Source: an uncultured Planctomycetaceae bacterium
GTDB lineage: Bacteria > Planctomycetota > UBA8742 > UBA2392
Direction of reading: 5' to 3'
NCBI GenBank assembly: GCA_964652605.1
Contig: CAZZBH010000005.1
Location: forward strand, 1-62,400
DNA length: 62,400 bases
In this document: piece after piece, positions 12,065 through 61,112 of the stretch
Layout: each line of letters starts with the position of its first letter
Position numbering within the stretch: the stretch's first letter is position 1
Notes under the pieces: model-generated
Database searches by the model: none
What the model was told of the DNA's origin: nothing
The model's input: only the letters and a program-made list of their open reading frames with translations
Made by a program: the position numbers and the translations under genes

Positions 12065-12634
12065 CTAGGCAATTTCTTCAGCGCGCACAAAGTTGTCGCG
12101 CTCGCCGCGGCCGGTCAGCGGGTAATCCTTGCGCAACGGAAAGTGCTCGTAGTAGTCCGGAAGCAGCACGCGAGCGAGCTTCGGGTGGCCGTCAAACGTG
12201 ATGCCGAACATGTCGTACACCTCGCGCTCAATCCACGCGGCGCCCTTGTAAACGCCAGACGCCGTGGGAAGACGCGGGTCAGACTCCGACACTTCGCATT
12301 CGAAGCGAATGCGCTTGTTGTTCGGAACGCTGTACACCGTATGGATGACCGTAAACCGCCGCTCCGGGTCAAAGTCCGGCCGGCGCATGTTATCGACCGC
12401 GGTGATGTCGGTGATCATGTCAAAGCACAGTTCCGGATCGGCGCGCACGATCGCCAGAGCCTTCACCACGTTGTCGCTGGTCGTGCGGATCACCGTCTGC
12501 CTGTACTCGGTGCGGATGTCCGTGATCAGACCTGCCAGCTTGCGGCTTAGCAGTTCCTGGTCAACCTGATTCTCTTCCAGTGCGCGCGGAAATGTCGCTC
12601 CGGCCTGGGCACCGGTATCTTCCTGCTCCGTCAT
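12065..12634 (-). CDS. nuoC: NADH-quinone oxidoreductase subunit C
   Basis: The 30-kDa subunit signature region ...GAAWIEREVYDMFGITFDGHPKLARVLLPDYY..PLRKDYPL. Its start overlaps the nuoB stop (ATGA). Confidence 0.9.
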   Translation of the reverse strand: MTEQEDTGAQAGATFPRALEENQVDQELLSRKLAGLITDIRTEYRQTVIRTTSDNVVKALAIVRADPELCFDMITDITAVDNMRRPDFDPERRFTVIHTVYSVPNNKRIRFECEVSESDPRLPTASGVYKGAAWIEREVYDMFGITFDGHPKLARVLLPDYYEHFPLRKDYPLTGRGERDNFVRAEEIA

Positions 12635-13155
12635 CAGTTCGCCTCAACCGTCGGGCGGGTGAACTCGCCTCGCTCTGCTTTGCCGTCAATGATCTGCTGG
12701 ATCTTCAGTACGCCGTCAATCAGACTCTCCGGGCGCGGCGGGCATCCGGGAACGTACACATCCACCGGGATGAATTGATCCACGCCCTGAATCTGCGGGT
12801 AGGTATTGAACACGCCGCCCGTGCTGGCGCACGCACCCATGCTGATCACCCACTTCGGCTCGCCCATCTGGGTGTAGATCTCGGTGAGCACCGGCATCAT
12901 CTTCAACACAACGCGGCCCGAAACAATCAGCAGGTCGCTCTGCCGCGGGCTGAAGCGAATCACCTCGGCGCCGAAGCGCGAAAGGTCGTATCGGCTGTTC
13001 AAAGTCGCCATCATTTCAATCGCGCAACAGGCGGTGCCGAACGGGTAGGGCCACAGACTGTTCTTGCGTGCCCAGCCGATAACCTTGTTTATCTGCGTGG
13101 TGAAGAAGCCATCGCCGGCAAGCGAGGGGATCATCTGTTCAATGCCCATGGGCAA
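12634..13155 (-). CDS. nuoB: NADH-quinone oxidoreductase subunit B
   Basis: Fe-S ligand contexts [19 protein letters not shown] and VPGCPPRPE. Confidence 0.95.
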
Positions 13156-13600
13156 CCTCGGTGGTCTTCTGTTCCTCGACTGCGGTCAGGAAACGTCGGG
13201 GAACTTCGTCCGGACGGTGGCCGAGCGGCACGTTCCAGTCCAGCACACCCTTGCGCCAGGCATACAGCAACCCAAAGCCCAGCACTGCAAGGAACACGCC
13301 GACTTCAGCCAGGTATTCCACGCCTTTGCCACTCTGCACGTCGGCAATGAAAGTCGCGGCGTACGGCGCCAGCAGTACCGTCTCGATGTCGAACAACACG
13401 AATAACATCGCGAGGATAAAAAAGCGCACGTTGAACTCAGTGCGTGTCTCGCCGATCTGCGGCACACCGCACTCGTAGGGCTCTTCCTTGATGTGGCCCT
13501 TGCGGCGACGGCCAATCAGAATCGACGTCACCAGCCCGCCGGATGCCACGGCAAAAATCAGGGCGCAATAAACCAGCAAACTGAAAAAGTCAGCACTCAA
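13139..13600 (-). CDS. nuoA: NADH-quinone oxidoreductase subunit A
   Basis: TTG start 6 nt after GGAGG. Three TM helices. Motif YECG.P......F.V.F ([22 protein letters not shown]). Confidence 0.85.
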
Positions 13601-13924
13601 TGTACGCCTCCGTAACTTGTTTTACCGCTGTGGGATGCTGGTGCAAGGGAGGTCCGGGGGACGCTTAAACGCCAGGGGCGACCCATGCGGGCCGCCCCTT
13701 ATCCAGCGTATTGCCATACGCAGGGGGTGGGCTGGATCTAACCAAGCCCGTCGGTCTCAGTTAGATGAGCCCCCCACGCTTTCGATCACAGTAGGTACAC
13801 ACAGATCACCTCCTTTCAAAAGGGCCTTGGCGTCAACCGGCGTCCGAAAGCCTTGCACCGGTGAGGCCGATCTGTCCCCGCCCGCGTCCGGGCGACGGCG
13901 CGCGAGTTTCCCCGCGACAGCAGA

Positions 13925-13952
13925 AGTGTAGCGCATCGCCTGAATGCGTCAA
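13925..13952 (-). promoter_or_regulatory. Candidate promoter for nuoABC
   Basis: On the minus strand: TTGACG, a 16-nt spacer, then TACACT, about 320 nt upstream of the nuoA start. Pattern match only. Confidence 0.2.
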
Positions 13953-18505: not shown

Positions 18506-19141
18506 ATGCGAGCAGCTACCGCGCTACTCTTGTCAGGTACTTTCGTGGCCCTGATGCTTTCGGCCTGCAGCGACCCAACCGCAAATCTCACCGCGGCGAA
18601 CACCGGCGACGCCAAGGACGTAACGACCGAGCAGGGCAAGGAAGTCACGTTCAGCAACGAAGGCAGCAAGATCGGTTTTCTCGGCGCCAAGGTTACCGGC
18701 CACCATTACGGCGGGTTCAAGAAGTTCAGCGGCAAGGCTGTGCTGAGCGACGACGGCAAGGCTGTGAAGCAGGTGGAAGTTGAAATTGACATGAACTCGA
18801 TCTGGACCGACGACCCGGAAAAAGACAATGAGCGCCTGACCGGGCACCTCAAGCAAGGCGACTTCTTTCTGGTGGAAGAGCACCCGACTTCCAAGTTTAT
18901 CTCTACCAGCATTGAGCCCGCCGAAGGCGCCAACAAGTTCGAAGTCACCGGCAACCTGACGATGCGCGGCGAGACGAAGTCGATCAAGTTTCCCGCAACG
19001 ATTACCGTCAACGACGGCAAGGTAACGACCAAGGCGGAATTCAAGATCAACCGCCACGACTGGAAGGTCAGCTTTCCCGGCATGGAGGACGACCTGATCA
19101 AGGACGACGTCGGGTTGACGCTGGACATCAACGCGGGCTAG
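18506..19141 (+). CDS. YceI-family lipoprotein
   Basis: AGGAGA precedes the ATG at 18506. Lipobox LMLSAC. YceI-like body (...GHHYGGFKKFSG..., ...FEVTGNLTMRGETKSIKFPA..., INRHDW). Confidence 0.8.
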   Translation: MRAATALLLSGTFVALMLSACSDPTANLTAANTGDAKDVTTEQGKEVTFSNEGSKIGFLGAKVTGHHYGGFKKFSGKAVLSDDGKAVKQVEVEIDMNSIWTDDPEKDNERLTGHLKQGDFFLVEEHPTSKFISTSIEPAEGANKFEVTGNLTMRGETKSIKFPATITVNDGKVTTKAEFKINRHDWKVSFPGMEDDLIKDDVGLTLDINAG

Positions 19142-20352
19142 TTGTCGGTGCGCTCTTCTTCCTCGCCGCGTTCGCGGGGCAGGCGGGCGCGGATATCCGG
19201 CGCAAGGTCCTTGAAGAAAATGGGAATGTAGCGGGCAGGGTACAGGATACCCTGCCCGTTCTTGTAAAGCCGCTTGACGATCGGAATGTGGTGCACGCCC
19301 ACCTTTCCGATGTACATCAGCTCAAAGTCTTCTGGCGTGGTTTCCCAAAGCTGGCGCACCAGCTCATACCCGCTGAAGTAGATGTGGTCCTTGGTGTAGC
19401 CGCCGCCGCGAAAGGCGCGCTCGCAGATGGTGTATGCCTCGGCGCGTGTGAACTTATGTTCGCTGGCAAGTATGTTGAAGATCTCCGCGAACGGCAGCTC
19501 TTCTTTGTCCATCAGGTACACGGCTTTGGTGCGCCCGGCCAACAGACGCTTGCGGCGGTTACTGAGCACGCCCGCAAGTTCCTCGTTGAAAGTCGCCAGG
19601 CCTTCTTCGGTTGACAGGTAGCCGGAACCCGGGATGTCCACGCGCGGGAACCCGTGAAAAAACAGCGCGCGAAACGGCTGCATTTCGCCGTTGCGCGAGC
19701 GCAGTACATGAGTCTGGATTTCATGTACTGCAAGCGACGCGATGTCGTTATCGCTGTACGTCGCACCCTTGCGCAAGGCCACGCTTGCTTCGCCGGCGGC
19801 TGCGTCGCTGCTGAGGTACTTGCGCACTCGCACGGTGCAGAGAATCTTCTGTTTGCGCACGACCGCATCAAGTTTCGAGCGGGCTTCGCGCGCGTCGGCC
19901 ATCTCGGTCGGCTCGGGCTCCGGCGGCAGCTTCAGCCATTCTTCGGCTTTGTGCAATGTTCGCTTGTCCGCGGTACCAAACAGCAGTCGTGAACGGTCCA
20001 GAAACTCGGGCGTGGTGCGCGACTCAAGCATGCAGATGGTGTTGAACACTTCGTCGCGCTTGGCGCGGTAGATGCGCCCCATCTCGCTATCGACAATGGG
20101 CAGGTTGAGAAGTTCAACTTTGGTGGCCTCGGGGTCGAAGTCCAGGCTCCGGTACCGGAACTTCGGGTTTTGCTTGGGGACCTTCTCGCGCTGCACATAC
20201 GTCTTGGCGATGTCGGTGCTGTTGACAGGGTTGATGTAGCGCAGCACGCGCAGATTGGCGCTGGCCATGCTGATGTGCCGGTCTGCCTCGAGCAGCAGGA
20301 AAAAGTCCTGGCTCTCGAACGCTTCCTGAAATGCATGGTGTTCGTCGTTCAC
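19138..20352 (-). CDS. DUF1704 / MATCAP-like tyrosine-carboxypeptidase-family protein ('QEGLA-motif' protein)
   Basis: VHEIQTHVLR (HExxxH-type metal site) and STEEGLATFNE (the QEGLA-motif position). About 400 aa, typical for the family. Confidence 0.65.
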   Translation of the reverse strand: MNDEHHAFQEAFESQDFFLLLEADRHISMASANLRVLRYINPVNSTDIAKTYVQREKVPKQNPKFRYRSLDFDPEATKVELLNLPIVDSEMGRIYRAKRDEVFNTICMLESRTTPEFLDRSRLLFGTADKRTLHKAEEWLKLPPEPEPTEMADAREARSKLDAVVRKQKILCTVRVRKYLSSDAAAGEASVALRKGATYSDNDIASLAVHEIQTHVLRSRNGEMQPFRALFFHGFPRVDIPGSGYLSTEEGLATFNEELAGVLSNRRKRLLAGRTKAVYLMDKEELPFAEIFNILASEHKFTRAEAYTICERAFRGGGYTKDHIYFSGYELVRQLWETTPEDFELMYIGKVGVHHIPIVKRLYKNGQGILYPARYIPIFFKDLAPDIRARLPRERGEEEERTDN

Positions 20353-20956: not shown

Positions 20957-22441
20957 CTACAGACTTGATCCAAAATCCCGCCGAAAACTGGCCATGTCCC
21001 GCGCCGCGCGCCGCACGTTGGCCTTGGCGCGCTTCTTGCCCGACTTCATCGCGCCCTGTTGCTGCTTCAGCATCTTCTTTTTGTCGCGGCCCAGCTTCCA
21101 CGCCGCGGCTTTGCCCATCATGCCCTGGTTCTTGAGGCCCTGAACCATCTCGCGCATCTGCTCAAACGACTTCAGCAGGCGATTGAGCTCTTCGGGCGTG
21201 CGGCCCGCGCCAGCCGCTATGCGCCGCTTGCGTGAGAGATTCAGTTGCTCCGGCAGGCGCCTCTCCTTGGGCGTCATCGACAGGATCAGCGCTTCTACGT
21301 GATCCAGGCCGCGCTCGTTGATCTGGTCCAGAGGCAACTCCGAGCCGCCGGGTATCATCTTGAGCAGCTCCCCCATCGGGCCCATCTTGCGGATCGCTTT
21401 GATCTGCGTGAGGAAGTCCTCCAGCGTGAATTCATCTGTCAGCAGCTTCTGCTCAAGCTCCAGTGCCTCTTCTTCGTTGATCGCGCTTTGCGCCTTTTCG
21501 ACCAGACTGACCACGTCGCCCATGCCCAGAATGCGGCTGGCAATCCGGTCGGCGTGGAAGACTTCCAGCCCGTCCATCTTTTCGCTGATGCCGATGAAGC
21601 GGATCGGCTTGCCGGTCACCGCCCGCACGGTCATCACCGCGCCGCCGCGGGAGTCGCCGTCCAGCTTGGTAAGAATCGCGCCTGTCAGCGGCAGTTGTTC
21701 GTCAAAGGCCTTGGCGGATTTGACGGCGTCCTGGCCGGTCATGCCGTCGCAGACGAAAAAGACTTCGTCCGGCTTGGTGCGCTTGGCGATCTCCTGCACC
21801 TCGCGCATCAGCACGTCGTCCACGTGCAGGCGGCCGGCTGTGTCTAGGATGATCACGTCGCACGAGCGCTTCTTGGCTTCGGCGATGGCGCGTTCACACA
21901 CGTCGGGGGGCGTAGATGAGCGGTCAGCAAACACCGGCACGCCGATGCCCTTGCCGACGACTTCCAACTGGTCCACAGCCGCGGGGCGCTGCAAGTCAGC
22001 CGCTACCAGCATGGGGCTCTTGCGGAACTTCTGCTTGAGGTACAGCGCCAGCTTGCCGCAGGTGGTGGTTTTGCCCGCGCCTTGCAAGCCCGCCATCAGG
22101 ATAATGGTCGGGCGGTCGCCGCGGAAACTCATCTTGGCGCGGCCCTGGTCGTCGACGACGCCGGGCTCCTGCATCATGCTGATCAGCTCATCGTTGACAA
22201 TCTTGATGAATTGCTCGCCCGGCCGCACGCCCTTAAGAACCTCGGCGCCCAGCGCCTTTTCGCGCACGCGCTCAGTGAAGTTCTTGGCGACCTGCAGGCT
22301 GACGTCGGCCTCCAGCAGCGCAGTACGGATCGCGCGCGCAGCCTCTTTGATGTTGTCTTCGGAAATCGTGTCAGAGCCGCTAAGCTTCCGCCAAAGATCG
22401 GTAAAGCGGCTGGAAATGTTGTCGAACATGCGCAATTCCAA
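20957..22441 (-). CDS. ffh: Signal recognition particle protein Ffh
   Basis: NG domain (GLQGAGKTTTCGKLA, DTAGR, TKLDGD), M domain (FTLEDFLTQIKAIRKMGPMGELLKMIPG ... SRKRRIAAGAGRTPEELNRLLKSFEQM) and a basic tail. Confidence 0.95.
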   Translation of the reverse strand: MELRMFDNISSRFTDLWRKLSGSDTISEDNIKEAARAIRTALLEADVSLQVAKNFTERVREKALGAEVLKGVRPGEQFIKIVNDELISMMQEPGVVDDQGRAKMSFRGDRPTIILMAGLQGAGKTTTCGKLALYLKQKFRKSPMLVAADLQRPAAVDQLEVVGKGIGVPVFADRSSTPPDVCERAIAEAKKRSCDVIILDTAGRLHVDDVLMREVQEIAKRTKPDEVFFVCDGMTGQDAVKSAKAFDEQLPLTGAILTKLDGDSRGGAVMTVRAVTGKPIRFIGISEKMDGLEVFHADRIASRILGMGDVVSLVEKAQSAINEEEALELEQKLLTDEFTLEDFLTQIKAIRKMGPMGELLKMIPGGSELPLDQINERGLDHVEALILSMTPKERRLPEQLNLSRKRRIAAGAGRTPEELNRLLKSFEQMREMVQGLKNQGMMGKAAAWKLGRDKKKMLKQQQGAMKSGKKRAKANVRRAARDMASFRRDFGSSL

Positions 22442-27814: not shown

Positions 27815-27828
27815 GCGCACACGGCGCG

Positions 27829-29373
27829 CTACCACCGAACGGGCGTCGCAACTGCTATACGGCCGTTGCGCCATGCGTTTTCCGCCTCGTCACCGAATGC
27901 AGCCAGGTTGTCGCCAGACACCGTGAAACGGCCGCTATCCTTAGCTTGCGCAATCAGGGTCGCGGCTGACAGGTCAATATGCGAAAAGGCTATGTCCACG
28001 CCTTCAAGCTTCATACTCTGCAACACCTGCACCATTCCCAAGGTGATGCGGTCGGTACGACGCAAACTGACCCAGAGCAGACTCTTCGACCCCGCGAGTT
28101 TCCTTAAGCCCGACTCCTGTACCACTTTTCCAACCACGTCGCTGCTCATTTCGGCCAACTCGTGTGCTCGCACACGCCCGATCGCCAGTTGCCGCAACTT
28201 CGTAAAGGCGGCCACTGCTTCCAGGTCTTCATCCGTTATGTTGGCGCAGCCTGACATATCCAGGTATTCAAGATCGGGAAGCTGCCGAAGGTGGTCCATA
28301 GTCGCCAGCCCCCCTCCCCCGAGGGTGGGATGTCCTGCGAGAGACAATCTCCTCAAACCCTTGAGCTCCGGCAATTTGGTCAGATCTCCCAGGCGGTGCC
28401 CGCCCCATTTCATGTTGCCGCCTGTTTCATAGTCGTCGCGCTGAATTCGCCCCTGCCAGAACAACTCCTTCAGGTCTTTCAACTTTGCAAGGCTTTCCAA
28501 CGCCACGAATCCAACTTGGGTGATAAAGGAAAGGTCAAGCGCCACCAACCCAGGCATTCGTTTTACAAGATCCGCTATGCCACGATCATTGACATTGTCG
28601 CTACCTGAAATGTCCAAGCACTCCAACTCGAAATACTCAGCAACGTACTGCAGTTGCTCGTTGCTCTCGAGCCTCACCTTCAAAGCCTTGAGCCCTTTCG
28701 CGCGACTAAGGCACCCTAACACCAAGTTCGTATATTTCGCTTGAGTTTGACACTCGATGCGCTCGACTCCATACTCCTCAAACAACGCGGCGTACTGGGC
28801 CAGCCCTTCGCCTGGGAACGTCATGCTTAGCGCCGTCAGGCGCCCGGTGGACAGGATCTTCCTCAATGCCTCTATAGGAATGGTATGGCCAAAGACTGAC
28901 AGCGAATGCAGGCGTGGGAGCTGCGGAATCTCGTCCAACACCTCGGCATACAGATTACCCATCATCCGTAAAGTCTCGAGCCGCCGCAGCTTTCTCACGG
29001 CCGCCGCAACCTTCTTCAACTCCGTTGCTGTATAAGGTGAACTGTCAGCGTGCGAGTTAGTTCGACTAATCCATAGGTGAGTAACAGTGTCGGCAATGGA
29101 GTCCAATGCTTGAACGAGTTCTGCTGCGCCACTCTCACCGACGAAAACCCACGATCCCGCGGGAACATACTTCTTGCCGTCGCTAGCTGTTGGTAGAACG
29201 CGCTGATCAACCCACCCCTCCGCCGCCTGAGGACTCGCTATACAAAACGGCAGATAATCTACAGCCGGTAGCTCTTCAACCCAAAGCATCGCCGTCAGAA
29301 ATAGAATCACCGGTGAAACCTTCAGCCACTCCACTACTCCGCAACTTCGAACAGCAAACATTCTACATTTCAT
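27829..29373 (-). CDS. Leucine-rich-repeat protein of the cysteine-containing (FBXL/RNI-like) type with an N-terminal hydrophobic anchor; last gene of the low-G+C island
   Basis: Repeats such as LECLDISGSDNVNDRGIADLVKRMPGLVALDLSF, LPDLEYLDMSGCANITDEDLEAVAAFTKLRQLAI and LKGLRRLSLAGHPTL. The ATG at 29373 follows AGGAGAAGG. About 48% G+C in sampled lines. Confidence 0.7.
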   Translation of the reverse strand: MKCRMFAVRSCGVVEWLKVSPVILFLTAMLWVEELPAVDYLPFCIASPQAAEGWVDQRVLPTASDGKKYVPAGSWVFVGESGAAELVQALDSIADTVTHLWISRTNSHADSSPYTATELKKVAAAVRKLRRLETLRMMGNLYAEVLDEIPQLPRLHSLSVFGHTIPIEALRKILSTGRLTALSMTFPGEGLAQYAALFEEYGVERIECQTQAKYTNLVLGCLSRAKGLKALKVRLESNEQLQYVAEYFELECLDISGSDNVNDRGIADLVKRMPGLVALDLSFITQVGFVALESLAKLKDLKELFWQGRIQRDDYETGGNMKWGGHRLGDLTKLPELKGLRRLSLAGHPTLGGGGLATMDHLRQLPDLEYLDMSGCANITDEDLEAVAAFTKLRQLAIGRVRAHELAEMSSDVVGKVVQESGLRKLAGSKSLLWVSLRRTDRITLGMVQVLQSMKLEGVDIAFSHIDLSAATLIAQAKDSGRFTVSGDNLAAFGDEAENAWRNGRIAVATPVRW

Positions 29374-30499
29374 TTTCCTTCTCCTGCGCAAACTTAATCA
29401 GCTTCTCATTGTCCCACTCCAAAATAATACCGGTGAAATCGTCCTTCTTCTTCCACAGCGCATGCCTTCCCAACGCATCCTCATGACTAAACTGAACCGC
29501 AAATGAAGCATACGGAATCATCCCTCCCTCAATTTCCCAATCTCTTGTCTGCGGGCTCCTGAATGCCCTAGACCATACACGGGCAGTAGACCACGCCATG
29601 CTGTACTGCTTGTCCGGGTGCTTGGCTATACACTCCTCACTGGTCTCCTCCACAAGACCAATTCCGCGAATAATGATATCCGTCCGACCCTGACGCATTT
29701 CGTCCCAATATCTGCCTGGTGAGTCGCACCGCGCCATGAACTTCTGATGTTGGGATTCCCGTATGCCGCTCCAATAATAGCGCTCGTTGTTGAGTGGCCC
29801 TTCATCTGGGTAATTGTCGTTGGTCCACGTCGTCCTTCGTGGCACGCGCCGATTCTGGGTGGCCTCGCTCTTCTCTATCTGTAAACCCATTTCATAGGCC
29901 TGATGATCGCCCTGATGAATTCGTGCATGACAGTACGTGAGAAACTTACAATTCCTGTGAAACTCCAAAATAAAAACCATGCCCTCAGCATAGCCCGCCA
30001 AACCACGCTGATCCTTCCGCCATAGCCCCCAAGCCCCCAGCCTAGGCGCGTCGTTGGGAAGTTGAGGGTTCTGAACCCAATTACGCGCCTCAAACCCTTT
30101 CGTACCATACCACTCCCAACGCTTCGTGATGGCATGAATAATAACTTGATCAATAACTCCTATGTTTGGCGCCTCCACGCCCATAACGCGACCACCGACA
30201 TTACGCGAAAACATCGTAGCGTAACACTTGCAAGGCCCTCCAGGAACTTTTAGAAGAATGCCGCCGATCGGACGGTCGTAGGCCGTAGGTTGATGCTGGT
30301 CCACAGCTTTGATCTCAGCAGCCTCGGGGGAAGGCGTTGTGGGATCCTGCGTTGGCACTTCGGGTTCCGACTCGTCTTCCCTTTCGGGCGAAGCAGCCGG
30401 TCCCCGAATCTCTCCTCCCGGCACAGGAAGACCGGGGCGGCCCGGAGGCGTGACACTATCCAAAAACTTCGAGTTCGAGGACCTAGTTCTCTTCGGCAT
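29363..30499 (-). CDS. Hypothetical protein with a ~80-aa Pro/Glu/Ser/Thr-rich disordered N-terminus and a Cys/His-rich core; island gene 3
   Basis: Strong SD (GGAGGGGAGG) precedes the ATG. The start lies 4 nt after the upstream stop. I recognise no family. Cys/His cluster EFHRNCKFLTYCHARIHQGDH and GGPCKCY. Confidence 0.55.
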   Translation of the reverse strand: MPKRTRSSNSKFLDSVTPPGRPGLPVPGGEIRGPAASPEREDESEPEVPTQDPTTPSPEAAEIKAVDQHQPTAYDRPIGGILLKVPGGPCKCYATMFSRNVGGRVMGVEAPNIGVIDQVIIHAITKRWEWYGTKGFEARNWVQNPQLPNDAPRLGAWGLWRKDQRGLAGYAEGMVFILEFHRNCKFLTYCHARIHQGDHQAYEMGLQIEKSEATQNRRVPRRTTWTNDNYPDEGPLNNERYYWSGIRESQHQKFMARCDSPGRYWDEMRQGRTDIIIRGIGLVEETSEECIAKHPDKQYSMAWSTARVWSRAFRSPQTRDWEIEGGMIPYASFAVQFSHEDALGRHALWKKKDDFTGIILEWDNEKLIKFAQEKENEM

Positions 30500-30502
30500 G
30501 TC

Positions 30503-31165
30503 CTACCTCCCCTCCACAACCAATGGTGGAAGCAAGGTTTTCCCAAGCTGGCGCCCGCCGGGTTCCAAATGTCCGGGAGGTTCAATCTCTCGCAAAAAGA
30601 TCGAAGGGTTCCCAGCGCGATGGTCTCCTACGTGGTCCTGGTTCCCACCCACTAAGTTCGCGCGCAAAGACCAATCATTTGGATCAGCACTCATAAACGG
30701 AAATGACAGCTCTTCGCTGACCTTGAATGAGCTATGCATCGACGATGAAACAGGATGGTCAGGTGTTGGTGTTGGTGTTGGTCTTGGTGTTGGTGTCGGT
30801 GTTGGTCTTGGTGTTGGTGTCGGTGTTGGTGTCGGTGTTGGTGTCGGTGTTACTGCCGACAACGAACTAGTCTCGGCTGGAATGGTTTCGCCCTCGGCGG
30901 CAGCATTAGGTTCGGCTGCAGCAAGTCCTCTCGATCCGCCAGGTGAACCATCACCGGCCCCCGACCATTGACCTCCCGGACACCCTAGCGGCACAGGTAC
31001 AGCTTGATTGGGATATAACTGATTCCACAGCCCCTGAGGATACGTGACCTCATTCAGGTGGGCGGGAATAGTTCCATGTGGAGTGTATATAGAACTACCG
31101 GTTTTCGGCAACCGGGACAACAGCACCGTGCACATCTGTGGGTAGCTTTGAGTTAGATACGGCAC
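30503..31165 (-). CDS. Hypothetical low-complexity protein with a (Thr-Pro)n linker; island gene 2
   Basis: ORF with GTG at 31165 (alternative ATG at 31135). Central TPTPTPTPTPTPRPTPTPTPRPTPTPTP. Largely Pro/Gly/Ser/Ala-rich. No recognisable domain. Confidence 0.45.
   Translation of the reverse strand: MPYLTQSYPQMCTVLLSRLPKTGSSIYTPHGTIPAHLNEVTYPQGLWNQLYPNQAVPVPLGCPGGQWSGAGDGSPGGSRGLAAAEPNAAAEGETIPAETSSLSAVTPTPTPTPTPTPTPRPTPTPTPRPTPTPTPDHPVSSSMHSSFKVSEELSFPFMSADPNDWSLRANLVGGNQDHVGDHRAGNPSIFLREIEPPGHLEPGGRQLGKTLLPPLVVEGR
30762..30851. repeat. Hexanucleotide microsatellite (GGTGTY/GGTCTT) x15 encoding (Thr-Pro)n on the minus strand
   Basis: 15 contiguous hexamers: GGTGTT x9, GGTGTC x4, GGTCTT x2. 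Confidence 0.9.
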
Positions 31166-31529
31166 GTCAAACCCCAGTTACCATGTGGCGTCGGTTCCAA
31201 GCTTCAATCGACTATCCTGGCACTGGCACACCGGCGCAACACAAATACACACATCGACTACTTGTAGTACGGACATTCGTCGACCGATTTTCATTGGCAC
31301 TTCGAACCGCCGAAGTTGCTATGTTGCTGTAAGCGCCACGCCCCCTATCCCCTTTATCGAGCTGCTGCGGGGCGTGTATGCTTGGCATCGTAGTAAAGTT
31401 GGGTTTTGGTACATTGGAATAGGCATCCGGCGAAACGACGATCTCTACGCCGCGATCGGGACATCTACCCCCGTTGTTCAACTCCATCTGGCACCCCCAA
31501 CGATTCGATTTGCTGTCTACCTAACAACT

Positions 31530-32492
31530 CTACTGCGGTACACTGAAGTTGTGAATCAAGCTAATCGCACCCTGCGATCCAATTGCGAAACCTGCCGGCC
31601 AACTAACCCAAGTGACCTGAGCCGTGTTCAAGTTGCCACCAGCGAAGTCTGGGCTACCCATCGTAGTGCGCTTGACAAACATCGTTTCTCTCATCGGCTC
31701 TGGTACAATCCCCGTCACTCCACGAGTTGGGCCTGCCTTGCCATCATCCCCGAGAACCATAAAGTATATTCGTTGAATTGCAGGATTCACTTCATTTGGA
31801 TTCAGCTGCCCCTGCATCATATCGTTTATCAGAAATGGTGTTCCATTAAACGATGGAACATAACTCGGTACTGCTTGACCGAGCGCGGGGTCGTACCAAA
31901 AGTATGGCACATAAGGAACGTCGTAACCTGCGGCGCGACACAGCGATTGATACTGTAGCAGGCATCGAGTGCTTCCCATTATTATCGTAGGGCGGCCATC
32001 GTTGGACACAACTCTTTGGTATGCAAGGTCCATTGCGTCTAATGTTAGTGCTCCACTCGCGTCCACTTTACGATCATCGTCCATAAGGTTGTGTAGCGCT
32101 GGTGATCCGTCATCTATGTCCAGCTGCTCAAAGTATCGATATAGAAGCCGCCTTAAAGCCAGCGCGTACTCGACCGCATCAATGTCGCTTGGGTTCTGAT
32201 AACGGTCTTGGTCTGCGTAATTCACCGTGTAACTGGTGATGAACTCGTTGAACGAGAATGTTTGCAAATTCGGATCGACATCAACCACGTCGGAGTTATC
32301 GCTGGCGGCGGCACCGTCGTTGACAATTTGTGCACCGCCGATTGTCGAGTTCTCGCGCGGATAGGTGATACTTCCGCCAGCAATTCCGAGAAACGGCCAA
32401 ACGCGGGCTATCTGCAGCTTAACAGGTGAGTTCTCGATGAGCCATTGTGCTGTTGGACTGCTCGCCAACAGGTTTGCGTTGCCCACAGCCAT
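31530..32492 (-). CDS. HK97-fold major-capsid-protein-like / encapsulin-like shell protein (putative); first gene of the low-G+C island
   Basis: 320 aa; GAGGAGGG lies 8 nt before the ATG. By-eye colinearity with HK97 gp5 covers three elements. E-loop region: ITYPRENSTIGGAQIVNDG...TFSFNEFITSYTV against LEYVREEVFTNNADVVAE...TFSKQTANVKTIA. Spine helix ending in DG: IDAVEYALALRRLLYRYFEQLDIDDG against LQSYINNRLMYGLALKEEGQLLNGDG. A-domain strand: RPTIIMGSTRCLLQYQSL against ASGIVLNPRDWHNIALL. No delta/scaffold domain is present. Confidence 0.5.
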   Translation of the reverse strand: MAVGNANLLASSPTAQWLIENSPVKLQIARVWPFLGIAGGSITYPRENSTIGGAQIVNDGAAASDNSDVVDVDPNLQTFSFNEFITSYTVNYADQDRYQNPSDIDAVEYALALRRLLYRYFEQLDIDDGSPALHNLMDDDRKVDASGALTLDAMDLAYQRVVSNDGRPTIIMGSTRCLLQYQSLCRAAGYDVPYVPYFWYDPALGQAVPSYVPSFNGTPFLINDMMQGQLNPNEVNPAIQRIYFMVLGDDGKAGPTRGVTGIVPEPMRETMFVKRTTMGSPDFAGGNLNTAQVTWVSWPAGFAIGSQGAISLIHNFSVPQ

Positions 32493-32655
32493 GGTAGCGC
32501 CCTCCTCGCACAGTTGCGTTACAAGATACCTAATTTCACCCCGTCAGCCATCACGTCGCCGTCACACTTTTGTCATATTTGCCGGCAAACGATGACATCC
32601 TACAAGGTGTCGCGGGATGACAGGTCATTCTTGTTATCTGCAGGTTAGTCGGCCG

Positions 32656-35047: not shown

Positions 35048-35968
35048 TCAGTTCTGAAGGCTGTTGCTCCAGTCAGTCCACTGCGCCACTGCGTTCAACT
35101 GCTCTGCGGCCGGAGCGTATGGGTCATAGACAATCGGCTTCAAGGTCGGTGTCAGCTTTCCGTGAATCCAGTTCAACAGCTTGACGACGTCGGCGCGAAC
35201 CGCCGATGGCTTGCCGGTTGTCCATTCCCTCAGCGTGATGCTGCCGTCCTGATCGGCGTCGATTTCGCTGAATTCGTCGTCGTTGCCGGAGTACTCTTCA
35301 CGCGTCAGCTTGTCGTCCCGGTTGGCATCTGACAGCTCAAAGTCGGCGCGTGAACGCACGCGAAGCAGACCGATCAGCAATTCGCGTTGTGCACGCTCTA
35401 GTTCATTGTGTTGCTCGCCGAAGCGCCGTACAACCGCCCATCGCACGTCCCGGTCGGGGTCAGCGATCGCCTGTAAGAAACGCGTGCGCTGTCCGCCCGG
35501 GCCATGAATCTGCAGCGTTCGCGCGGCGCGTATGCGCACGCGGGCATCCGGATCCGATAACCGGGCAGCAACCTGCGCTCTTACTGCTTCAGCGACTTCC
35601 GTGTCAACGGCACCTAGGTCCACGTACTCAAGAAACCGAATGGCCTCGACTATTGCGGCTTCGTCGCCTGCCTCAGTGCTGTCTTCCAGAAAGCGGGCAA
35701 TGGCCATAGCGCCGCGCCCACCAGCCGCGCGCAACCGGTTGTTGGCCTGTACGCGCTGAAGGGGATCTTCAGACGAAAGCAACCTGACATCTCCGTCCAG
35801 CAGCGGCGGGGCGGGATCGTCGGGCTGTGCCTTGCGAGCCTCGACGGGGCCGCGCAACGGCGGCTGCAGCTCGCGGGTGCTGATTTGAACGATGCGGTCC
35901 AGTTCCTGGTTGCGGTTGGGCGGCGCGAAGCAGCCTGACAACAAGAATGCCATGGTCGCGGCGATCAA
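35048..35968 (-). CDS. Lipoprotein with HEAT-like repeats and two EF-hand Ca-binding loops
   Basis: Lipobox FLLSGC. HEAT-like helices (ARLSDPDARVRIRAARTL, IADPDRDVRWAVVRRF). EF-hand loops DANRDDKLTREE and DADQDGSITLRE. Start is ambiguous: TTG 35968, ATG 35953, or an ATG overlapping rpsP. The upstream part of ORF 35048..36604 overlaps rpsP and is not credited. Confidence 0.6.
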   Translation of the reverse strand: MIAATMAFLLSGCFAPPNRNQELDRIVQISTRELQPPLRGPVEARKAQPDDPAPPLLDGDVRLLSSEDPLQRVQANNRLRAAGGRGAMAIARFLEDSTEAGDEAAIVEAIRFLEYVDLGAVDTEVAEAVRAQVAARLSDPDARVRIRAARTLQIHGPGGQRTRFLQAIADPDRDVRWAVVRRFGEQHNELERAQRELLIGLLRVRSRADFELSDANRDDKLTREEYSGNDDEFSEIDADQDGSITLREWTTGKPSAVRADVVKLLNWIHGKLTPTLKPIVYDPYAPAAEQLNAVAQWTDWSNSLQN

Positions 35969-36255
35969 GCCGACGCGAATGCCTTCTTGCGCATTTCGCG
36001 CGCGGTGGCCTTGTTGATGCCTTGCTTGCGAAACAGGCTCCATACGGTCGGGGTTGGCTGCGCACCCTTGGAAAGCCAGCTCTCGACCTTGGCGCGGTCG
36101 ATGGTGACCTTGTCGGCTTCGGTCGCGATATTGGGGTTGTAGCTTCCCACCACCTCGATAAATCGACCGTCGCGCGGGCTCTTGCTGTCTGCCGCGACAA
36201 TCCGGAACGTGTGGTAGTGCTTGCGCCCCGTCCTTGAGAGACGAATCTTTACCAT
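35965..36255 (-). CDS. rpsP: 30S ribosomal protein S16
   Basis: MVKIRLSRTGRKHYHTFRIVAADSKSPRDGRFIEVVGSYNP is the canonical S16 N-terminus. Confidence 0.95.
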   Translation of the reverse strand: MVKIRLSRTGRKHYHTFRIVAADSKSPRDGRFIEVVGSYNPNIATEADKVTIDRAKVESWLSKGAQPTPTVWSLFRKQGINKATAREMRKKAFASA

Positions 36256-36431
36256 TAACCAAGCCTCCAGCGCTGCTCATCAGTTCCTGCCAGCCGGCCG
36301 GACCCAATTGCCCCGCAACCGGTACTCCCCGGCGTGCAGGGCGCGAAAGGGTAGCGGGTGCAAGGAGTTGTTGCAAGGGGATGGGAGGCGTCAACCACCC
36401 TGCAGCGTGTGCGCGACGGGCAGCATGCCAT

Positions 36432-37022
36432 TCAGGGCTTCCAGTCGCGCGGCAGGCGGTTCTTTGGCGCAGCTGTGCGGGTGAGGTCAAGCTGTGAGTC
36501 AAGGTCTTCGGGGCGCACCACGACGTCGTCGATCGTGGAATCTTCACGCTGTAACGTTCCCTCAAGGATGCCACGCAGAATCTGCGCAGGCCCGTCGCCC
36601 TCAAACTGCATGCCAGACAAGCCCGGCAGATTGCTGAACAGCAGCTTCACGTCCACTAGTCCGCCGCCCTTCTGCTTCAGTCCGGCAAGAATTTCGCGCG
36701 CGCGAGAGAATGCTTCGCACAGGCTTTCGACCTCTTCCAGATCGCACCCGGACTTAAAGGCTACTTCACGGCGCCGCAGCTCGTCCATCAGCTCGGGGTT
36801 TGCCTGCTCATCGTCTGCCATCACGGCTTTCATGCGTTCAAGCCGTTCAATGTGCTCTTCGATGTCGCTTTCGATCTCGCGAATCAGGTCCGACAGCGAG
36901 CCGGCATCAAGGCCGAGCTTGGAACCCTCTAGGGCCTGCTTGACCTGGTCGCCCAACTGCATGGTGCGCAGGTCCTTCATGCTGCGGATCAGAGTTTCCA
37001 GAGTAAAGTTGTCCGCGTCCAC
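36432..37022 (-). CDS. Stand-alone, acidic SRP54 M-domain-like protein (no NG GTPase domain)
   Basis: GTG at 37022 lies 6 nt after GGAGA. [31 protein letters not shown] parallels Ffh [84 protein letters not shown] aligns without gaps to Ffh MTPKERRLPEQLNLSRKRRIAAGAGRTPEELNRLLKSFEQMREMVQGLKNQG, with about 19/52 identical by hand count. Confidence 0.5.
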   Translation of the reverse strand: [196 protein letters not shown]

Positions 37023-37181
37023 GTGATGTCTCCGGCTGACATTATAACGGAGTCTCTGCCGCAATGCCAATTGCCCACCGGCAATCAAACGCCTGATCGG
37101 GCGCCATTGTTTCATGCCTCGAGATTGCGCCAACCCGCACGTCAGCGGAGCGTACCAACAGCGGGCCACCCGGAGACTGTC

Positions 37182-61021: not shown

Positions 61022-61112
<91 letters not shown>

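Follow-up and report, generated by a model that had tools for sequence, protein, structure and literature searches.

What does a capsid-type gene do among the housekeeping genes of a planctomycete, and do the genes packed behind it belong to the same system? This question is raised by a locus in a 62,400-nucleotide (nt) stretch of DNA from an uncultured Planctomycetaceae bacterium (contig CAZZBH010000005.1 of assembly GCA_964652605.1, positions 1 to 62,400), which is called the window below. The locus comprises a gene for a 320 amino acid (aa) protein, here called the shell gene, and four genes downstream of it. An initial annotation, made from the sequence letters, had proposed an undescribed encapsulin-like system and had named profile searches, a structure comparison and a synteny survey as checks. 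The reading that we favor, with a probability of roughly 55%, is that of a domesticated HK97-fold capsid protein which founds an undescribed encapsulin-like family with polymorphic cargo and a cognate leucine-rich repeat (LRR) partner. So far, this family is almost confined to Planctomycetota.

The open reading frame (ORF) of the shell gene was borne out exactly as first delimited, on the minus strand and with an ATG start. A monomer model of the protein was built with AlphaFold2 (AF2) and a 30-sequence alignment (mean predicted local distance difference test score (pLDDT) 80.5, predicted template modeling (TM) score 0.79). It contains N-arm helices, E-loop strands (residues 34-44 and 77-91) joined by a tip that is disordered (45-75), a spine helix of 20 residues (104-123) followed by DDG, the A-domain and C-terminal strands, so that every element which had been aligned by eye with HK97 gp5 (N-arm, E-loop, spine helix to DG, A-domain, C-terminal strands) is present in the model. 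A delta or scaffold domain is absent, as had also been stated, since the fold begins at residue ~10. When the model was compared with the PDB by Foldseek, 323 matches at E<=1e-3 were obtained, the best 50 of which were all HK97-fold shells. The top seven were Family 2A/2B encapsulin shells (8t6r, 6x8m, 8wol, 9bje, 8won, 9bix and 9bhu; E 1e-15 to 1e-13, TM 0.57-0.80), led by 8t6r (E 1.1e-15, TM 0.69/0.73), SrpI (6x8m, 2.7e-15) and Mmp1 (8wol, 3.7e-15), and HK97 gp5 and other phage capsids ranked after the encapsulins, from E 8e-9. Among predicted viral structures (BFVD) the best match was a siphovirus capsid protein (E 1.6e-12), and the named proteins among the 50 matches listed were all phage capsid-related. 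The shell protein is thus predicted by its model to have the HK97 fold, with encapsulins as its nearest solved relatives.

At the level of sequence, PHROG 212 ('major head protein') matched the shell protein with E 1.9e-6. No Pfam family matched it at E<=1, and NCBIfam gave no significant match and a weak one to a phage-capsid (epsilon15 gp7) model, which is consistent with a family outside the known models. Searches of PDB sequences with the shell sequence and with a profile returned nothing relevant, the capsid/encapsulin link being visible there by fold alone. Thirty-nine close homologs with 34-58% identity to the window shell were found, all of them unnamed or 'hypothetical' and none with a precomputed Pfam domain; those with a named source organism came nearly all from metagenome-assembled genomes (MAGs) of Planctomycetota. 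In an alignment of 30 homologs 12 residues are invariant, and the sole Pfam match among 30 core family members was to the SrpI-like family PF19307, in one member (E 1.3e-4). An exhaustive profile search returned 243 representative clusters at E<=1e-3, 48 of them at E<=1e-30. Fifty-three distant matches of the profile were scanned against PHROG and Pfam; their Pfam families were SU10_MCP, GP7, Phage_capsid and, in eight of the 53, SrpI-like. The family thus takes an intermediate place, close to SU10/epsilon15-type capsids in sequence and close to Family 2 encapsulins in modeled structure, and by curated criteria it belongs to neither.

In the species representatives of GTDB, 32 loci were detected in 13 genomes, 12 of them from Planctomycetota and one a Fimbriimonadaceae MAG, and eight of the 13 genomes carry several copies (5, 4, 4, 4, 3, 3, 2 and 2). 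Each of the five annotated copies lies among different housekeeping genes. Two observations on individual copies (loci are given L numbers) may be added here. In the only non-Planctomycetota carrier, L011 (JADLGZ010000245.1, 59-267 and 3045-4064), the shell gene is extended at its C-terminal end by a long Lys/Ser-rich stretch, and 211 nt of the shell 3' end are repeated upstream (73% identity), which suggests tandem loci and cross-phylum transfer. The shell genes of L022, L029, L023, L028, L033, L035, L037 and L038, copies from genomes with more than one locus, contain internal stops or frameshifts and are either pseudogenised paralogs or long-read MAG assembly errors.

Genes of phage morphogenesis were then looked for around the shell genes. 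The other 41 window ORFs gave no portal, terminase, tail, head or integrase PHROG at E<=1e-5, in agreement with the initial annotation, which had seen no portal, terminase, tail or integrase gene nearby. One window PHROG match was annotated 'protease'; our guess is that it comes from a MATCAP-family (PF08014) carboxypeptidase homolog (E 1.6e-65) encoded at 19138-20352 (minus strand), 11 kb from the shell gene. Around the five annotated related loci, no phage Pfam families were detected within 10 kb on either side. Homologs confined to prophages would have spoken against a compartment, as had been pointed out at the outset, and in these five contexts they were never found beside phage morphogenesis genes. 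The 2.9 million viral contigs of IMG/VR contained just three relatives, with 24-26% identity. One of them, L125 (26% identity), carries its capsid gene (PHROG 212, E 2.7e-90) directly after terminase, portal and scaffolding genes and shows the true phage context of the shell sequence lineage.

What accompanies the shell gene instead is a conserved block of shell gene, a gene for a protein with a disordered N-terminus and a swappable C-terminal domain (gene 2), and an LRR gene (gene 3), which answers the synteny survey proposed initially. The next ORF, defined as the one whose start lies no more than 450 nt from the stop codon of the shell gene, encodes CxC or CxxC in its first 45 aa in 28 of 35 loci, compared to 8.9% of control ORFs; the window is among the exceptions. 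In the leader consensus, CxxC comes after an acidic stretch and is often succeeded by 'GRGRVEVPEDF', and then by a long low-complexity region with 'FTLAE(T)' or '(T/S)APW(F/W)' motifs. In an all-against-all comparison of gene-2 proteins the N-terminal ~160 aa were conserved (e.g. 84% between L019 and L032) and the C-terminal domains were unrelated or reshuffled. The N-arm lines the interior of HK97-fold shells, and its class tracks the motif class of the cargo: 'LQIARVWPF' occurs with FLxxVxPP or LxQLGI, 'IPFFQAW' with FTLAE, and 'IQIHG' and 'VQVWG' with APW. The C-terminal domains shift independently of these classes.

The C-terminal domains appear to be linked to the gene that follows. The C-termini of L004_b and L007_b (35% identical) are each followed by a homologous small membrane or secreted protein, those of L012, L025, L033 and L027 pair with a homologous ~190-aa secreted protein, and L003 and L016 pair with related LRR proteins; this co-variation of payload class and downstream gene class is suggestive. 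A second, orphan cassette is present in both L004 and L007; in front of it, the shell/cargo junction (3' end of the shell gene, 5' end of the cargo gene) recurs as a direct repeat of 249 nt or 358 nt with 90% identity. Conserved N-termini, unrelated C-termini and orphan cassettes, as in polymorphic toxin loci, are therefore features of the family, and the window locus has a single cassette. In most loci the cassette is lower in GC than the shell gene and the flanks. Pfam detected no family in 10 gene-2 proteins of related loci, L009_712 has a zincin-type HExxH motif, and phmmer searches of the PDB with three payloads had no match below E 0.04. The initial annotation had overlooked that the family is multi-copy and that the partners behave like polymorphic cassettes.

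Several leads on the cargo genes were dropped. Payload domains could not be surveyed with a profile built from 23 cargo N-termini, which was too diffuse and found only 2 proteins. Pairing of a C-terminal shell Cys with the cargo CxxC was rejected because L008, L009 and L034 break the correlation. A strain-level cassette difference between L121 and L122 concerned the called start codons only, the DNA being 99.99% identical. A variant architecture was seen in L021 (2404-2958) and L024 (9287-9841), where the shell gene is separated from the CxxC cargo gene by an additional gene for a 184-aa membrane protein (96% identity in the two genomes).

In the window, L001, L008 and L009, the Cys-motif element forms a small protein of its own, whose gene follows the shell gene or belongs to the cassette. 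Those of L008, L009 and L001 have 73-78 aa and start with 'CGCGG'; in the window, the counterpart is a 91-aa protein in which the Cys pair is lost. It is probably equivalent to the CGCGG proteins, an assignment made from position, size and two local motifs alone (SNVPKPNFTTMP aligned with SDVPLPDISTMP, and at the C-terminus CVYL..GVPVPG with CTYI..APIPG), as BLAST gave no link between them. The following 220-aa protein matches no Pfam family and has orthologs in L008 (2208-2816) and L009 (3738-4373), with 71-73% identity over the first 63 aa. At its C-terminus and that of its orthologs lies the motif phi-[FY]-[LI]-x-x-phi-x-P-P-G, which recurs at the N-termini of the window 378-aa protein, L009_712 and L009_144 and, in a looser form unmatched by the regular expression, at the C-terminus of the small proteins. 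In 124,796 six-frame window residues this expression, which was derived from the very sequences it counts, had 2 matches, both in the locus and 132 nt apart. In a small database, phmmer linked the motif-bearing termini weakly (E 3e-4 to 0.02; 0.006 for the C-terminus of the 220-aa protein and the N-terminus of L009_144). The 378-aa protein is encoded where related loci have their polymorphic gene 2. Among 5.8 billion proteins it had no homolog but itself, Pfam, PADLOC and the PDB sequence search gave no match, and its AF2 model, made without an alignment, had a pLDDT of 33 and was unusable for a fold search. None of the five proteins of the locus matched PADLOC.

The third gene encodes an LRR protein in 10/10 loci tested and in L003 and L121. 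The LRR protein had been noted at first as a eukaryote-like companion; the repeats were confirmed, but the protein is a conserved component of the family rather than an oddity. An N-terminal hydrophobic segment was found in 17/24 gene-3 products compared to 4/40 gene-2 products, which suggests from sequence that the LRR partner is exported or membrane-anchored. Its predicted export points to an extracytoplasmic activity or interaction. In L121, an IS200-type Y1 transposase gene (PF01797; 11150-11662, minus strand) follows the LRR gene at a distance of about 2 kb and is the sole mobile-element gene seen near any copy.

The most economical explanation of these data is an encapsulin-like shell that loads co-encoded proteins via short terminal motifs. 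As judged from its fold, the 320-aa protein would self-assemble in the cytoplasm into a small closed shell, probably with T=1 geometry by analogy with Family 2A. During assembly, co-encoded proteins would be captured via short linear motifs in disordered termini, as proposed because these motifs are shared and co-vary with the shell N-arm. In the window, the putative loading sites lie in the C-terminal tails of two proteins (91 aa and 220 aa) and in the KFLDSVTPPG N-terminal region of the 378-aa protein, with KFLDSVTPPGRPGLPVPGG and the C-terminal 40 aa of the 220-aa protein as candidate loading sequences; in most related loci, the acidic-CxxC N-terminal motif and the 'FTLAE' or 'APW' motifs in a disordered leader of ~100-160 aa would serve this role. 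The variable globular C-terminal domain would be the payload. Because payload class co-varies with partner class, the downstream LRR protein may be the cognate binding partner of the payload, with an immunity-like or receptor-like role. Cassettes would be replaced by recombination at the shell/cargo junction, as in polymorphic effector systems; this is suggested by the orphan cassettes behind junction repeats in L004 and L007 and was not seen in the window. The payloads may be toxins, recognition determinants or enzymes. What would be new, and to our mind unprecedented, is cargo acting as a polymorphic effector with a cognate exported or anchored partner.

Several points weigh against an encapsulin-like system of this kind. 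Shell assembly and encapsulation are deduced from a monomer model and from genes, and the nearest recognisable sequence relatives are phage head proteins, with PHROG 212 matched in 48/53 distant matches. Pfam and PDB scans revealed a recognisable enzymatic or toxin domain in no payload, save the HExxH motif of L009_712. The co-variation of N-arm and cargo motif could be explained by plain co-inheritance, the motif expression is circular and its phmmer support weak, and the topology would be awkward if the partner of an encapsulated cytoplasmic protein were exported. The window copy itself departs from the family consensus, as the Cys pair of the small protein is lost and the cargo is an orphan, and its locus, being of foreign composition, could be a decaying import.

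Among other explanations, one extends an encapsulin-like system rather than excluding it. The shell could deliver variable toxins, released by lysis or an unknown route, onto the envelope of competitors, with exported LRR or small secreted proteins conferring immunity. We regard this as possible and hold the more general form of the idea, a capsid-derived container for polymorphic effectors in a free-living bacterium with exported LRR proteins as matched immunity factors or receptors, equally tentatively. A conserved N-terminus with a variable C-terminus, orphan cassettes behind junction repeats, a downstream partner that co-varies with the C-terminal class and has an export-type N-terminus, multiple copies per genome, low-GC cassettes and one payload with zincin HExxH would all be expected of such toxins. 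However, no known toxin, immunity or trafficking domain was found in the 14 proteins scanned, PADLOC and the PDB gave no match, a size of 400-700 aa and an almost invariable LRR architecture would be atypical of immunity proteins, lysis or secretion genes were not seen in the cassettes, and no precedent was found in the literature. If true, cells would antagonise each other or discriminate kin in a new, encapsulin-based way, and a single genome would encode several versions that differ in their load.

The two remaining explanations would do without a compartment. That the capsid protein disrupts phage assembly as a decoy, or that gene 2 and the LRR protein form a sensor-effector module of anti-phage defense, is very unlikely: LRRs are common sensor scaffolds and the locus is hypervariable, multi-copy and island-like, but the five proteins have no PADLOC counterpart, the LRR N-termini are export-type and not of cytosolic sensor architecture, Pfam detected no nuclease, NTPase or other effector domain, and the neighboring genes are housekeeping and not defense genes. 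Slightly less probable still, and largely refuted already, is a prophage remnant or satellite-like element, in which a capsid module of an SU10/epsilon15-like phage was left over or hijacked and the neighbors are unrelated accessory 'morons'. Against the absence of portal, terminase, scaffold, protease-type head, tail and integrase genes from the window and the five annotated contexts, and island ends without att-like repeats or tRNA, stand the PHROG 212 similarity, the phage head proteins among distant relatives, the low GC of the window island and the internal stop codons in copies L022, L029, L023, L028 and L033. The conserved three-part synteny, the 12 residues invariant in 30 homologs and the 2-5 copies per genome also speak against a prophage remnant; moreover, a close homolog is absent from 2.9 million viral contigs, and the true phage relative has a full head module.

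The features of the window locus are listed in Table 1. The five genes form a tightly packed block with spacings from ~46 nt down to overlaps and the shell gene in first position. This corrects the initial description of a four-gene operon headed by the capsid gene, in which the shell gene was rightly placed but the 91-aa ORF was overlooked. The true start of the LRR ORF is probably Met7 or Met11, at 29373 or 29361. The block coincides with a compositional island (GC 0.51-0.57 vs 0.60-0.65 outside; GC at third codon positions (GC3) 0.47-0.62, flanking genes 0.70-0.84) between a gene for an OpuAC-permease fusion of an ATP-binding cassette transporter on one side and sucD on the other. The neighbors of the shell gene are housekeeping genes (SucD, OpuAC-permease, Ffh, radical SAM and RibD_C). 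The island ends are free of flanking direct repeats and of an adjacent tRNA, and promoter-like and terminator-like sites in the island were not in excess over shuffled expectation. A SucD-based search for a close relative genome, in which an empty insertion site could be tested, gave none with >65% identity. In the favored reading, the window copy is a low-GC, recently acquired version with a single cassette.

Table 1. Features of the shell locus in the window (positions count from the first letter of the window).
Feature	Position	Strand	Remarks
Shell gene, 320-aa HK97-fold encapsulin-like protein	31530..32492	-	ORF with ATG start; AF2, Foldseek and PHROG 212
91-aa protein ORF	31212..31487	-	Between shell gene and (Thr-Pro)n gene
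220-aa protein	30503..31165	-	Conserved 63-aa N-terminal domain, (Thr-Pro)n linker, C-terminal tail with IFLREIEPPG
Tandem repeat	30750..30863		12-nt period, 7 copies; encodes the (Thr-Pro)n linker
Short linear motif, copy 1	30575..30601	-	C-terminus of 220-aa protein; motif regular expression
Short linear motif, copy 2	30443..30469	-	KFLDSVTPP, N-terminus of 378-aa protein; motif regular expression
378-aa candidate cargo/effector	29363..30499	-	~80-aa Pro/Glu-rich N-terminus, then globular orphan domain
520-aa LRR protein	27829..29391	-	N-terminal hydrophobic segment; LRR_4 E 1.6e-7, LRR_14 1.6e-6
Compositional island	27815..32655		Five genes, from OpuAC-permease gene to sucD; GC, GC3

Elsewhere in the window, tRNA-Ser(TGA) at 61023-61112 (minus strand) was the sole RNA gene detected, 28 kb from the island. 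A GC dip to 0.585 at 12580-13931 contains two ORFs with atypical GC3 (0.51 and 0.64) amid normal genes; it may represent non-coding DNA or a further small insert of foreign origin. At 36432-37169 (minus strand) a 245-aa protein with an SRP54 M-domain only is encoded (PF02978 SRP_SPB, E 2.8e-9); such a stand-alone M-domain protein is unusual and is distinct from the full Ffh at 20957-22441. A 518-aa ORF at 35048-36604 (minus strand) overlaps a clear ribosomal protein S16-like ORF at 35965-36255 (minus strand), MVKIRLSRTGRKHYH; its N-terminal third is probably spurious, and the C-terminal HEAT-repeat part alone is likely real.

How does the family relate to described systems? Four encapsulin families are known, all found via membership in Pfam clan CL0373 (2021 census, PMC8346489). 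Because the present family has no curated Pfam match, that census would by our analysis have missed it. The initial proposal of a candidate undescribed system is supported: no curated encapsulin or capsid model matched, and Family 2 shells were closest by fold. The viral HK97 fold by which encapsulins are generally recognised (PMC8346489) was found in the AF2 model and by Foldseek, and morphogenesis genes of phages were missing from the neighborhoods of the window and of the five annotated loci. The Family 1 model PF04454 (Linocin_M18) matched neither the window protein at E<=1 nor any family member (0/30). The closest structural neighbors of the window protein are Family 2 shells, and it does not match PF19307. 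The known Family 2 cargo consists of cysteine desulfurase, terpene cyclase, polyprenyl transferase and xylulose kinase (PMC8346489), and no such Pfam domains were detected in the window partners or in 10 gene-2 proteins. The partner set thus includes no known Family 2 cargo, in line with the initial suspicion of an unfamiliar set, and no description of such a family or system was found in the literature, coverage of which was incomplete. Family 3 (PF05065 within a biosynthetic cluster) differs in that PF05065 did not match and the neighbors are not biosynthetic, and Family 4 (A-domain only, PF08967) in that the full HK97 fold is present and PF08967 did not match.

The closest solved structures are the Family 2A encapsulins of Synechococcus elongatus (SrpI), Mycobacterium smegmatis (Mmp1) and Acinetobacter baumannii (TM 0.65-0.73), which likewise have ~300 aa, no cyclic nucleotide monophosphate (cNMP)-binding insert and a shell gene without phage neighbors. 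In Family 2A, cargo is loaded via a disordered N-terminal stretch that contains several short motifs, each insufficient by itself (PMC11659603). The adjacent proteins described here, with their long disordered N-terminal leader and short conserved motifs, fit this documented mode, as does the earlier comparison of the disordered N-terminus with Family 2 cargo-loading regions. The differences from Family 2A are that sequence identity is 14-17%, that the Pfam SrpI-like model does not match the window protein, and that the family described here has polymorphic cargo in cassette-like form, a conserved export-type LRR partner and 2-5 copies per genome. The heads of PHROG 212 (SU10_MCP PF17236 and GP7 PF20911, from SU10/epsilon15-type tailed phages) share the fold and are the nearest sequence relatives; their genes, however, follow terminase, portal and scaffold genes as in L125, and a functional phage capsid gene is linked to terminase, portal and scaffold or protease genes, which were not detected in the window or in the five annotated contexts. 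Tailless, portal-less 'mini' HK97-fold viral entities also combine a capsid protein of encapsulin-like features with an absence of portal and tail genes; they are described as viral genomes with lysogeny-associated genes, unlike the 4.8-kb chromosomal island of the window, which has no integrase, and Planctomycetes are not mentioned for them (bioRxiv 10.1101/2025.06.18.659913).

Orphan cassettes are known from polymorphic toxin loci such as CdiA-CT/CdiI of contact-dependent inhibition (CDI) and Rhs. The family resembles these loci in its conserved N-terminus, unrelated C-termini, cognate downstream gene and displaced cassettes with a junction repeat. It differs from them in that a recognisable toxin with a cognate immunity protein, or a known secretion domain, was not found with Pfam, PADLOC and the PDB, and in that the upstream partner has a capsid fold and is not a component of a secretion apparatus. 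No paper pairing an encapsulin with a polymorphic toxin in such a system was found in an incomplete coverage of the literature. If confirmed, the family would add a fifth shell lineage, between SU10/epsilon15-type capsids and Family 2, which bears on capsid domestication, and would be the first encapsulin-like system with polymorphic, cassette-exchanged cargo instead of one conserved enzyme. It would also offer portable short loading motifs for engineering (CxxC leader, FTLAE, APW, FLxxVxPPG) and make dozens of 'dark' Planctomycetota proteins, as well as the recurrent export-type LRR proteins, accessible to testing.

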